Source: Bradymonadia bacterium (GTDB lineage: Bacteria; Myxococcota_A; Bradymonadia; UBA7976; UBA1532). From it: 64,000 nucleotides of DNA. The notes beneath the pieces were generated by a model. The model was not told where the DNA came from and did no database searches. It saw only the letters and a program-made list of their open reading frames with translations. Position 1 is the stretch's first letter. Every line of letters begins with the position of its first letter. Of the stretch, positions 14,852 to 20,285 are shown piece after piece. The stretch spans positions 1 through 64,000 of the forward strand of contig JBKAGE010000053.1 of assembly GCA_046290225.1 (NCBI GenBank), in the 5' to 3' direction. A program made the position numbers and the translations under genes.

Positions 14852-15304
14852 TCAATCGAGGGCAGCGCCTCCGATCTCCATCGCCTCCAGAAGCGCCATC
14901 ACCCCACCCTGTAAATCACCATTTGTCAGCCGCTCGTGGGCTTCGAATTGAAGGTGCCGGCGCCAGGGCAGCCCTGCGAGGGCCTTCGCCGCCGCCATCG
15001 GGTCCCCGAGGGCGTGCCGAGCGGCGGCGCAGAGCCATTGGTGATAGCGCTGCAGGCGGGCTGGGGGTGGGTTCAGGCACGGCGAGCTCTCCAAGATCAC
15101 CACCGCGTGCTGAGGATCCCCCAGCTTGAGCCAGCAGATGGCCAGCGCCAGCGCCGGGCGCGGATCAACAGGATCATCGTCGAAGGCTGCCTGGAAGGAT
15201 TCCCGGGCAGAGGGCCAGAGTCCTCGCGCCGCTTCGTCGAGGCCGTCGCAGAAGGCGGCGTTGACTGTGGCGGGTGCTGGCCCGTGCGCCGAAGAGGAGG
15301 TCAA
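14852..15304 (-). CDS. Small TPR-like helical protein
   Basis: Ala/Leu helical pattern; start overlaps the stop of the pentapeptide gene. Confidence 0.55.
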   Translation of the reverse strand: MTSSSAHGPAPATVNAAFCDGLDEAARGLWPSARESFQAAFDDDPVDPRPALALAICWLKLGDPQHAVVILESSPCLNPPPARLQRYHQWLCAAARHALGDPMAAAKALAGLPWRRHLQFEAHERLTNGDLQGGVMALLEAMEIGGAALD

Positions 15305-16500
15305 TCGAACTCCAGGTTGTGGAAGCGGCGGCTCAGAGGGCGATCGGACTTCTTGTCGTCCTTGCTCTCGGCCGCGGCGGGGGCCGCCGGCTGAGCGGAG
15401 GCTGCCGGCGCTGCGGGGGCACGGGCAGGGGCCCGGGCCGGGGTCGCCGGCGCCGCGCGGGGCGGTGTCGATGGGCGGGGTGGCTCGGAGGCGCGGTCCA
15501 TGCTCACCTCGCGGGGGCCATCAGCGTCGACGTAGACTTTCTGGCCATCGACCTGAAACAGATCGAGCTCAGGGATGGTGAGGGTGCGCTTGAGGTGCGC
15601 CATGAGCCCGGGGAAGTCGAGGCCCGCGAGATCACCGCCGAGGGCCTGATCAGGTGTGCCTGTGGGCAGGCCCTGCCCCAGCACGTACTCTTCGATGAGG
15701 GTGCGCAGCACCCGGCGCAGACGCTCGGGGGTCCACCCCTGATCTGCGCCGAGATCTTCGTAGATGCGCTCCCAGTCCTGCTCCGACATCGATGGACTCC
15801 CAGGGCCTCGGGTGCGGGGGAACAACCCCTCCGGCGGGGCGTCGCCCCAGTCTACCCGTGCCGTCTGACATTGGATCAAGGCTGCACCTTCCAGGGCCAC
15901 ATCGTCAAAATGAGCGCCGGAGAGATCACACCCCACCAGCAACGCGCCGGTGAGATCAGCCCCATAGAGATTGGCCGATTTGAGGTTGCACCCCACCAGC
16001 AGCGCCCCGCGAAGGTCGATGCGGGTGAGGGAGCTGCCCCCCAGCATGGGGTTGGCGAAGGACACGCCCACGAGGGTGGCGTCCTGCAACTCGAGGCCGT
16101 CGGTGTGGCCGCCCTTCACGTCTACCCTGGACCAGCGTGCCCCGGGCATGTGGGCCCCGGTGAGGTTGCAGTCTTCCACGGTGACCTGACGCAGGGTGAT
16201 CTCGGCGGCGTTGATCTTGAACAGCGTGCAGTGACTCAGGCCCGAGCGAGTGATCTCCGCAGACATCAAATCAGCGCGGCCGAGGTCGCAGCGGTGCAGC
16301 TGTGCGCCCCCTTCGATGCGGGCGTGATTGAGGCGCGCTTCCGCGAGACCCACCTGGCTCAGGGTGCACGCTTGCAGTACGACACCCTCGAGGGCGCGGC
16401 CCCGAAGATCTTGTTCTTGGATCCGGCCCCCGGCCACGATGGCACCGGGACCACTCAAGCGTCGATCAGAACCCATAGACACAGCGTGTGACATCCTCAT
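15301..16500 (-). CDS. Pentapeptide-repeat protein with unknown C-terminal domain and RFHNLEFD tail
   Basis: About 200 aa of A(D/N)Lxx-type repeats (ANLYGADLTGALLVGCDLSGAHF); exact start uncertain. Confidence 0.85.
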   Translation of the reverse strand: MRMSHAVSMGSDRRLSGPGAIVAGGRIQEQDLRGRALEGVVLQACTLSQVGLAEARLNHARIEGGAQLHRCDLGRADLMSAEITRSGLSHCTLFKINAAEITLRQVTVEDCNLTGAHMPGARWSRVDVKGGHTDGLELQDATLVGVSFANPMLGGSSLTRIDLRGALLVGCNLKSANLYGADLTGALLVGCDLSGAHFDDVALEGAALIQCQTARVDWGDAPPEGLFPRTRGPGSPSMSEQDWERIYEDLGADQGWTPERLRRVLRTLIEEYVLGQGLPTGTPDQALGGDLAGLDFPGLMAHLKRTLTIPELDLFQVDGQKVYVDADGPREVSMDRASEPPRPSTPPRAAPATPARAPARAPAAPAASAQPAAPAAAESKDDKKSDRPLSRRFHNLEFD

Positions 16501-18702: not shown

Positions 18703-20285
18703 ACACCCTCGACAGCGCCACCGAGCTCGAACACCTCATCAAAGCCCGCTATCCGATCATCTACATCAACAGCAGTGAAGAGGAGCGGGTCGAGCATGCC
18801 CTGAAGCACATTCAGGACACGCTCAATGCTCGGAGCAGCAGCCACCGCAAGCTGCTGCACTGGTCGATCACCGAGGGCTTCGTCGGTGACGAGCACCACG
18901 ACGTCCGTGATCCGATCAAGGCGCTGGAGTTCTTGATCCGGTACGAAGAGAGCGCCCTCTTCGTGTTCCGCGATTTTCACCCGTACCTCAAAGATCCCGT
19001 GGTGGTGCGTCGACTGCGCGACTGCCACCGGGCCCTCAAGGAGTCCGACAAGCTGCGCACGGTGGTGCTCTTGAGCCCCTCGCTCAAGGTGCCCATCGAG
19101 ATCGAGAAGGAGATGGCGGTCATCGACTTCGCCTTGCCTGATCGATCAGAGCTGCGCACCCTCGTCGACGACCTGTGCGACGCCTACCAGCTCGCTCACG
19201 ACGAAGACGCCCGCGACCGCTTCACCGAGGCCGCTCTGGGTCTGGCCTACGAAGAGGCCAGCAACGTGCTCGCCAAGAGCATGGTGCGTCATCGCGATCT
19301 CGACATGGGCACGATCCTCAGCGAGAAGAAGGCCATCATCCGCAAGTCGGGGCTGCTCGAGTATTACGAGAGCGACAACAAGTTCACCGACGTCGGCGGC
19401 CTGACTGTGCTCAAAGAGTGGCTGCTCAAGCGCCACGGCGCCTTCACCCAGAAGGCCCGCGAGTTCGGCCTGCCGGTGCCCAAGGGCATCCTGCTCATCG
19501 GCATCCCCGGTTGTGGTAAGTCGCTCACCGCCAAGGCCGTGGGCGCCTTGTGGCAGATGCCTCTGCTCCGCCTCGACGTGGGCAAGGTCTTCAGCGGCCT
19601 CGTGGGCTCTTCAGAGGAGAACATCCGCAAGGCCATCGCCACCGCCGAGGCCGTGGCCCCTGCCATCTTGTGGCTCGACGAGCTTGAGAAGGGCTTCAGC
19701 GGGGTGCAGTCCTCGGGGCAGAGCGACGCCGGCACCACGGCGCGCGTCTTCGGCAGCTTCATCACCTGGCTGCAGGAGAAGACCAGCTCGGTCTTCGTCA
19801 TCGCCACGGCCAACGACGTGTCGATGCTGCCCCCCGAGCTGTTGCGCAAGGGGCGTTTCGACGAGATCTTCTTCGTCGACATGCCCACCGAAGACGAGCG
19901 CCGCGACATCGTGCAGATTCACCTGCAGAAGAAGGATCGCGATCCCGCCACCTTCGACGTCGACGCACTGGCCCGGGCCTCTCGGGGCTTCAGCGGCGCC
20001 GAGCTCGAGCAGGCGGTGGTGAGCGCGCTGTACGACGCCTTCTTCGAGGAGGCCGAGCTGAGCACCGAGCGGCTGCACAAAGCCTGCGAAGAGGTGATCC
20101 CGCTCAGCCTCACCATGAAAGAGAAGATCGACGACCTGCGAGAGTGGGCCCAGAGCCGCGCCCGGAGTGCCAGCGGGCACCCCATCGGCGCCCCAGCTCT
20201 GGAAGAGGCCGCCGCAGCAGGTGAAGACAAGCCCGCCGGGGCGTCGACCGCCCGGTTCAGAAATCTCGAGCTGGAGGGAGACTGA
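18699..20285 (+). CDS. Ycf46-like AAA+ ATPase
   Basis: [15 protein letters not shown]-terminus; GIPGCGKS Walker [10 protein letters not shown] Walker [21 protein letters not shown]. Confidence 0.9.

Follow-up and report, generated by a model that had tools for sequence, protein, structure and literature searches.

Why do two unrelated proteins, encoded on opposite strands of one locus, end in nearly the same peptide? The question arises from 64,000 nucleotides of a Bradymonadia bacterium contig (JBKAGE010000053.1, positions 1 to 64,000), here called the window, in which an initial annotation had noted a common C-terminal motif on a pentapeptide-repeat protein and on an AAA+ ATPase and had proposed that it acts as a docking peptide. 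We find that the tails are conserved on two unrelated protein families, one of which we name TailP, and that these families co-occur with genes of contractile injection systems (CIS). With a probability that we put at about 0.55, both tails bind one site on a Ycf46-like ATPase machine; TailP would be an adaptor that brings its pentapeptide partner, its tail either ousting that of the motor or taking turns with it, and the machine likely serves the CIS in this lineage.

A conserved C-terminal core on two unrelated families

Both tails were found in the sequence where the annotation had placed them, and the genes of the two proteins that bear them are divergently oriented, as it had said. The minus-strand tail, RFHNLEFD followed by the stop codon (15304..15327; the open reading frame [ORF] ends in RRFHNLEFD), closes TailP, and the plus-strand tail, RFRNLEL (20253..20273), stands near the end of the ATPase. 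In the genome of the window (G000), in which 5781 genes were called with a hexamer model, the pattern RF..LE[FLIVM][DE] matched two genes, the TailP-bearing ORF and the ATPase gene, compared with 1.1 matches anywhere and 0.1 in the last 16 residues among shuffled G000 proteins (20 shuffles). Because the pattern was built from the two window tails themselves, conservation in orthologues offers a fair test.

TailP orthologues were collected with an iterated profile over fetched loci, which reached 64 genomes, including G190, a profile match without the tail; 62 true or probable members, the weak match G264 among them, have a readable C terminus. Common to the TailP and ATPase tails is a core, [LI][ED]-hydrophobic at the C terminus with Arg or Lys ahead. 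The [LI][ED]-hydrophobic element terminates all 62 TailP proteins and is present in 83 of 84 ATPase tails, with Arg or Lys no more than 4 residues ahead of it in 80 of the 84. The core also ends 116 of 120 database ATPase homologues and is found in 61/75 metagenome and 45/60 viral ATPases. Conservation in orthologues thus holds for both families in the form of this core. The form in which the motif had been written fared less well: of the 62 TailP proteins and 84 ATPases, 1 and 5, respectively, fit RFxNLE, and 29 and 1 fit RF..LE[FLI][DE]. RFxNLE is a local dialect, not the common core of the tails. Across the phylum the TailP consensus is S-x-[RG]-F-x-x-[LI]-[ED]-[LFI]-D (R[FW]xx[LI] in 48/62, GFxxL in 12/62), and the family-wide core of the ATPase is [RK]-x(0-3)-[LIV]-[ED]-hydrophobic; in two genomes (G097 and G313), IDL occurs in both tails.

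On both families the tail is conserved behind a linker that cannot be aligned. In the ATPase, the linker ahead of the motif measured at least 11 residues in 183 of 183 measurable sequences (medians, 14 to 15); a lower limit of this kind would follow if the tail had to extend to a site in a set place. A matrix trained on TailP tails ranked the two tail proteins first in G000 (scores of 15.0 and 14.3; the next protein reached 10.3). A matrix trained on ATPase tails ranked the ATPase first, with TailP absent from the best 14 and no convincing further tagged client in G000. Beyond the pair, just one other clearly tagged protein was seen in this genome. As a side observation, class-level relatives that give no DUF1257 match (L090-L093) have Ycf46-like ATPases with ends such as RRMLDFF or RKVVDFF, possibly a related dialect outside the module described below.

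TailP is a separate protein that recurrently fuses to its neighbor

The motif does not belong to the pentapeptide protein as such, where the annotation had put it. In the window, TailP is a 162-residue domain (15301..15789, minus strand) that forms the C-terminal part of a fused ORF (15301-16500) and follows in frame a pentapeptide-repeat protein (15790..16500, minus strand; Pfam PF00805, E = 3e-22). An internal Met lies at 15789, with GGGAG 7 bases upstream. When the C-terminal half of this ORF was used as a query, 18 of 27 other family genomes matched, and in 18 of 18 the pentapeptide gene ends in a stop codon and is followed by a second gene of ∼150 to 195 residues that carries the tail; the window thus holds an in-frame fusion. 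Of these relatives, 15 end in LEFD and 3 are frameshifted with the motif in another frame; at loci L047, L048, and L051, the TailP frameshift, either genuine or an assembly artifact, lies in the GC-rich linker and the tail is intact in another frame.

Of 63 genomes, 16 have the pentapeptide gene fused to TailP, 46 have the two side by side as separate genes, and 1 shows neither arrangement. An assembly error was considered for the fusion and rejected, given its presence in 16 of the 63 genomes and contigs from three sequencing runs that cross the junction without an indel. In one run, both differences from the window are listed and neither creates a stop; in the other two, the listed differences create no stop, with 1 of 4 and 5 of 11 differences unlisted (codons read by hand). 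Since the fusion recurs, it suggests that the pentapeptide protein and TailP work together.

A structural model of TailP (predicted template-modeling score [pTM], 0.39) folds the first 95 or so residues into a helical hairpin and a small alpha/beta domain; behind them come a low-confidence Ala/Pro linker and the tail. Pfam assigned no family to the window's TailP, and among 57 members it gave three chance-level matches (best E, 0.027). A fold search with this model yielded at best a Z score of 2.3 (root mean square deviation, 2.9; 47 residues aligned), Foldseek gave nothing at E <0.001, and a homologous-protein search with TailP found no match; this lack of matches does not by itself make the fold a new one. 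The ESM Atlas returned three clusters, mostly from Myxococcota, at 0.78 to 0.83, which serve as leads only. In an RNA run covering 0.06 of words, no contig fell on the TailP region.

The tail-bearing ATPase belongs to a Ycf46-like module

The second tail protein is an ATPase (18699..20285, plus strand) in which Pfam recognizes AAA at residues 264 to 394 only; the Walker A and B motifs are found at residues 268 and 324, respectively. Its model places a degenerate AAA fold (D1), starting near residue 6, ahead of this intact domain (D2), without an MIT or N domain; the best structural matches are the D1-D2 rings of p97, Cdc48, Rix7, and NVL (Foldseek E, ∼1e-21; template-modeling score, ∼0.65). 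Source records name the protein a member of the SpoVK/Ycf46/Vps4 family, and it is followed by two candidate cofactors, a Ycf35-like DUF1257 protein (20285..20680, plus strand; PF06868, E = 6e-26) and a DUF2997 protein (20677..20877, plus strand; PF11211, E = 8e-20). The modeled tandem architecture and these two neighbors identify the ATPase as Ycf46-like and, by prediction, a p97-type double ring, the name Ycf46 being taken from the source records and the comparison set consisting of noncyanobacterial sequences. PDB sequence searches with DUF1257 and DUF2997 gave nothing below E = 0.05. DUF2997 proteins themselves (window 20677-20877) have a loosely conserved V-x-[IV]-G end behind an acidic linker.

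At the head of the operon is a protein with an FHA domain and a coiled coil (16603..18702, plus strand; Pfam FHA, E = 3e-20), and a gene of this kind precedes the ATPase in many Myxococcota loci. The ATPase block is syntenic in the window's family.

The module co-occurs with contractile injection systems

We surveyed 401 Myxococcota genomes for the module and for CIS genes. The TailP profile matched 58 of them, and dropping G190 as false left 57 true members. DUF1257 was found in 113, of which 11 weak matches (E = 2e-9 or worse versus 7e-17 or better) were set aside, leaving 102. A gp19-type tube gene occurs in 199 of the 401 genomes overall, in 102/102 genomes with strong DUF1257 matches (107/113 with the weak ones included), and in 57/57 true TailP genomes; DUF1257 is present in 55 of the 58 TailP-profile genomes. 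An unannotated gene of the G000 CIS locus (G000:C82:211134), used as a marker, was likewise detected in 102 genomes. Marker and DUF1257 coincided in 98, with 4 discordant genomes on each side and 295 with neither, and the marker was present in 54 of the 57 TailP genomes. By eye, the marker was located within 30 kb on the DUF1257 contig in 7 genomes. Module and marker are jointly absent within families f1 (genus g4) and f25, which may point to more than one event.

Physical linkage was seen as well. In several metagenome loci, the genes that Pfam finds around the ATPase encode sheath, gp19 tube, CIS tube, hub, gp25, baseplate J, or spike proteins. Loci in which sheath, tube, hub, or baseplate genes surround the module are L212, L213, L373, L377, L378, L385, L395, and L423; in four of them (L212, L213, L395, and L423), only a few kilobases separate the ATPase gene from those for sheath and tube. 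Locus L377, whose protein clusters are named Treponema lecithinolyticum, encodes DUF2997, a pentapeptide-TailP fusion ending in GRFSRLEF, DUF6760, a hub protein, and an ATPase ending in RQLEV, and in L374 (clusters named Leptospirales or Spirochaetota) the genes are separate. At spirochaete-type loci (L377:498-5861, L385:1535-7518, L378, L373, and L367), we also observed a radical SAM/4Fe-4S gene (Fer4_12) adjoining the ATPase amid CIS genes, and a look at the sequences found similar radical SAM-type genes near the ATPase in L275 and L278.

The CIS locus of G000 (C82:194338-215246; L428-L431 and L433) encodes two sheaths, two gp19 tubes, a 1,549-residue ORF, a CIS tube-LysM protein, a hub, gp25, baseplate J, a PASTA-Tail_P2_I protein, and the marker, which has 520 residues, and ends with FHA and vWA-FHA genes; no spike or ATPase gene was seen inside it. 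A study of marine metagenome-assembled Myxococcota genomes describes extracellular CIS (eCIS), with no mention of an ATPase in its main text (PMC11937823), and in passages of two CIS surveys (PMC6899500 and PMC12210884), the terms searched for brought up nothing about this module.

Where the two tails may dock

One sign that the tails may be read by a common partner comes from position −4. In 19 family genomes the two tails always agree there, with Arg/Arg in 7, Gly/Gly in 12, and no mixed pair. The Gly group is one clade on a short branch (SH-aLRT branch support, 96), and outside it TailP has Arg at −4 in 46 of 47 cases. Over 59 pairs, tails from the same genome were more alike than shuffled pairs (3.2 versus 2.84 of 8 positions), the pairs being kin and not independent. 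Among phages, 17 of 64 genes beside the viral ATPases carry the core at their ends, versus 20 of 441 other ORFs, counted over related loci. Conservation, the 19/19 agreement at −4, and the similar tails beside phage ATPases support the proposal of the initial annotation that the tails act as a common docking peptide, which might recruit both proteins to one partner or serve as a self-tail that is displaced.

No component other than the ATPase was seen in all of the modules that bear tails, and by elimination it becomes the candidate site. DUF2997 occurs without an adjacent DUF1257 in L374, and in a group of phage modules neither domain is recognizable; in their place is a 110-residue protein, one hairpin of which bears a weak resemblance to DUF2997 (hhalign probability, 27%, over 18 columns). 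The phage modules (L282-L347) have a characteristic order, the ATPase followed by a protein of 250 to 330 residues, often with a similar tail, and then the 110-residue protein (MPCD...HSHDGG), which is BNR-like or has no Pfam match. On balance we would place the docking site on the ATPase ring at about even odds, less readily on DUF2997/DUF1257, and least readily elsewhere.

Columns that separate the Arg from the Gly group number six in the ATPase (one being the tail itself; L159, E185, and N189 lie in the D1 lid), one each in DUF2997 and TailP, two in the pentapeptide protein, and none in DUF1257, the TPR-like protein behind TailP, or the FHA protein. A receptor formed by L159, E185, and N189 was not adopted: the three columns change on one branch, and position 189 is S, A, H, K, or L regardless of the tail in the wider set and was not picked by the tree test. 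The three columns remain a lead only.

In the mechanism that we favor, the motor would be a hexamer, as its AAA+ family membership suggests, and its own tail would occupy a site on a neighboring subunit or on bound DUF2997/DUF1257 cofactor. TailP would offer a copy of the tail peptide on a long linker and compete with the ATPase's tail for that single site; the pentapeptide protein would meanwhile be held by the folded domain of TailP. The pentapeptide partner, or whatever it binds, would thereby be brought to the motor. In this lineage the motor's job would probably concern the CIS, of which it would remodel or load a component.

Several observations weigh against this mechanism. The agreement at −4 is a single evolutionary event. 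A tree-wide parsimony test for co-change in 83 genomes gave no significant result at any of 7 tail positions (p, 0.05 to 1.0); this test did not assign the changes at −4 to a single branch, perhaps because of how it chose among tied ancestral states. None of 520 receptor columns tested survived, and mutual information on 181 ATPases (effective number, 46 to 127) was dominated by kinship. In the single-chain model, the ATPase tail (residues 503 to 528) is disordered, with a predicted local distance difference test score (pLDDT) of <50. As for the CIS, module and CIS locus lie on separate contigs in G000, no CIS protein of this genome carries the tail, and the genomes in which they co-occur are kin. 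Within families that have DUF1257 and the marker, the TailP profile matched 1/29 genomes (f16) and 0/19 (f25). In an eCIS survey (PMC8213781, supplement file 4), 1 of 1433 DUF1257 and 0 of 1569 DUF2997 domains fall in eCIS operons, figures to which 3 of the 15 supplement files did not contribute and one did in part. Synechococcus elongatus, a control, has DUF1257 and no gp19 match. Given this near absence from eCIS operons and the control, a CIS role of the module is not general.

Of the alternatives, the one that survives best assigns the tails to a hub: both would dock, without functional competition, on a multivalent DUF2997/DUF1257 scaffold, or on a CIS part, and so be assembled next to each other. 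There is precedent for an AAA+ protein and an unrelated protein with a common C-terminal docking motif (PMC5515868, available part), and both the 55/58 co-occurrence of DUF1257 with TailP and the DUF2997-like hairpin of the small phage protein would suit such a scaffold. That DUF1257 and DUF2997 contribute zero and one group-separating columns, and that phage modules and L374 keep their tails when one or both domains are unrecognizable or not adjacent, argues the other way, and we regard the hub as possible but unlikely.

We think it distinctly improbable that the tail is a degron. In that reading the ATPase would thread it, as a substrate tag, through its pore; TailP (and its partner) would be the cargo to be unfolded or loaded, and the tail of the motor would act as a pseudo-substrate. 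The terminal position behind a disordered linker and the predicted p97-like double ring would fit, as would Pvc15, a tandem AAA protein with only D2 active that selects CIS payloads by a terminal peptide (PMC11495950, in the part available). Judged by the geometry of p97, however, a linker of 11 to 15 residues that starts from the D2 end hardly seems long enough to extend to the pore entrance at D1; many ATPases run several residues past the motif, and the single further tagged protein in G000 makes a scant clientele.

Incidental resemblance would mean two separately conserved tails with different partners and three loosely shared positions, the CIS co-occurrence reflecting ancestry or lifestyle. 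The loose core with upstream Arg/Lys does terminate 105 of the 5781 G000 proteins, the two tails differ upstream outside the window's family (e.g., IRHLEM versus RFASLDLD), and the co-change test was not significant. Against this stand the 19/19 match at −4, the enrichment of the core beside phage ATPases, the linkage to CIS genes in both Myxococcota and Spirochaetota-named clusters, and the joint absences in f1 and f25, which together leave coincidence a very small chance. The least probable reading, recognition of an ESCRT-III-like MIM1 by a Vps4-type ATPase, is largely refuted: the window's TailP tail matches [DE]xxLxxR[LF]xxL, the spacing that had prompted the annotation's Vps4 analogy, but among 62 TailP proteins it fits this one alone, and among 84 ATPases none, and so is a coincidence, G000 (99.4% complete, with a positive control) has no PF04212 match, as the annotation's remark that it saw no MIT domain had anticipated, nor a Snf7 match (PF03357; PspA was not searched for), and the ATPase model starts at D1.

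Neighboring genes

Behind TailP, and coupled to it, lies a TPR-like protein (14852..15304, minus strand; Pfam TPR_19, E = 2e-5) that is syntenic in the family. Further out, window 11211-14842 holds an RdgC-like pair and nucleotidyltransferase-like, lipoprotein-like, and PP2C phosphatase genes, which several members of the family keep in synteny with the module; the PP2C gene beside an FHA operon hints at Ser/Thr phospho-control. Downstream of DUF2997, an acidic low-complexity ORF and a 189-residue ORF (20882..24081, plus strand) both lack the tail. The former (20882-23515) is an Ala/Glu-rich product of 877 residues, and the latter follows the module in the window's family, as does an RNase E/G gene with a very long low-complexity C terminus (24398-28309).

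Significance

The TailP family and the link between the module and CIS are new; in the literature covered, mostly listings and abstracts with few subscription papers, we found no description of the shared tail, TailP, or the CIS link. In cyanobacteria and algal plastids, ycf46 and ycf35 have long been orphan genes; the Ycf46 module is also common in phages. In the window the shared-tail system comes down to just two proteins, for which nature supplies a paired Arg/Gly change, so that a simple peptide-competition test could locate the docking site. The near one-to-one match with the CIS marker across Myxococcota provides a countable phenotype for the module, namely particles and cargo. If true, our reading would add to CIS biology a second ATPase system and C-terminal addressing. 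More tentatively, and with less confidence than in the mechanism itself, one may picture the Ycf46/DUF1257/DUF2997 module as a general AAA+ machine addressed by C-terminal tags. Myxococcota and Spirochaetota might then have dedicated it, as a second motor, to a CIS subtype not yet described, in which pentapeptide-TailP would be a tag-bearing adaptor that gates cargo loading or sheath/tube remodeling under FHA-mediated phospho-control.

Comparison with known systems

Like ESCRT-III proteins and Vps4, the system combines a short C-terminal motif containing Arg and Leu with an AAA+ context. MIM1, D/ExxLxxRLxxL[K/R] (PMC11998489, accessible part), is a helix bound by an MIT domain (PMC5840170, accessible part). 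Here, in contrast, the spacing is not conserved, neither MIT nor Snf7 was found, and the ATPase itself bears the motif. Another formal parallel is the actinobacterial 20S proteasome, for which Mpa and Bpa/PafE, an AAA+ ATPase and an unrelated protein, share a C-terminal motif for one pocket (PMC5515868). The motif is a different one, and proteasome docking was set aside: the only proteasome-family match in G000 adjoins an HslU-like gene and looks like HslV.

With p97/Cdc48 and Rix7/NVL, its best structural matches, the ATPase shares the D1-D2 tandem, but it has no N domain, its D1 is degenerate, and identity is 17 to 21%. Two other ATPases of G000 (C4:16981 and C78:353697) look Afp15-like, and locus L354 likewise has other ATPases that we take to be of this type. 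We therefore doubt that the window ATPase replaces Afp15; it is probably an extra beside these presumed Afp15-like ATPases, not a stand-in.

Pvc15/Afp15 is the ATPase of eCIS. Pvc15 is a tandem AAA protein in which D2 is the sole active ATPase and partners are chosen by a terminal peptide, and it too is associated with CIS (PMC11495950, in the portion available). As in the Afp15/Pvc15 type, the window's ATPase belongs to a group encoded in or co-inherited with a CIS locus, from which it is unlinked in G000 itself. Pvc15 differs in that its signal peptides are N terminal, in having three domains, and in the lack, in the accessible part of that source, of a reported motif shared with clients; the window ATPase, whose D1 begins at about residue 6, has no extra N-terminal domain ahead of D1.

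Also among the closest known systems is the Ycf46 module (COG SpoVK/Ycf46/Vps4) with DUF1257/Ycf35 and DUF2997: the ATPase belongs to the same family by its source names, and both of its Pfam partners recur here. The ycf46 gene of Synechococcus elongatus is stress induced, with a reported interaction with KaiC (PMC13683863, accessible part). Unlike that module, the window's version is accompanied by three further proteins (FHA-coiled-coil, pentapeptide, and TailP), and it tracks CIS.

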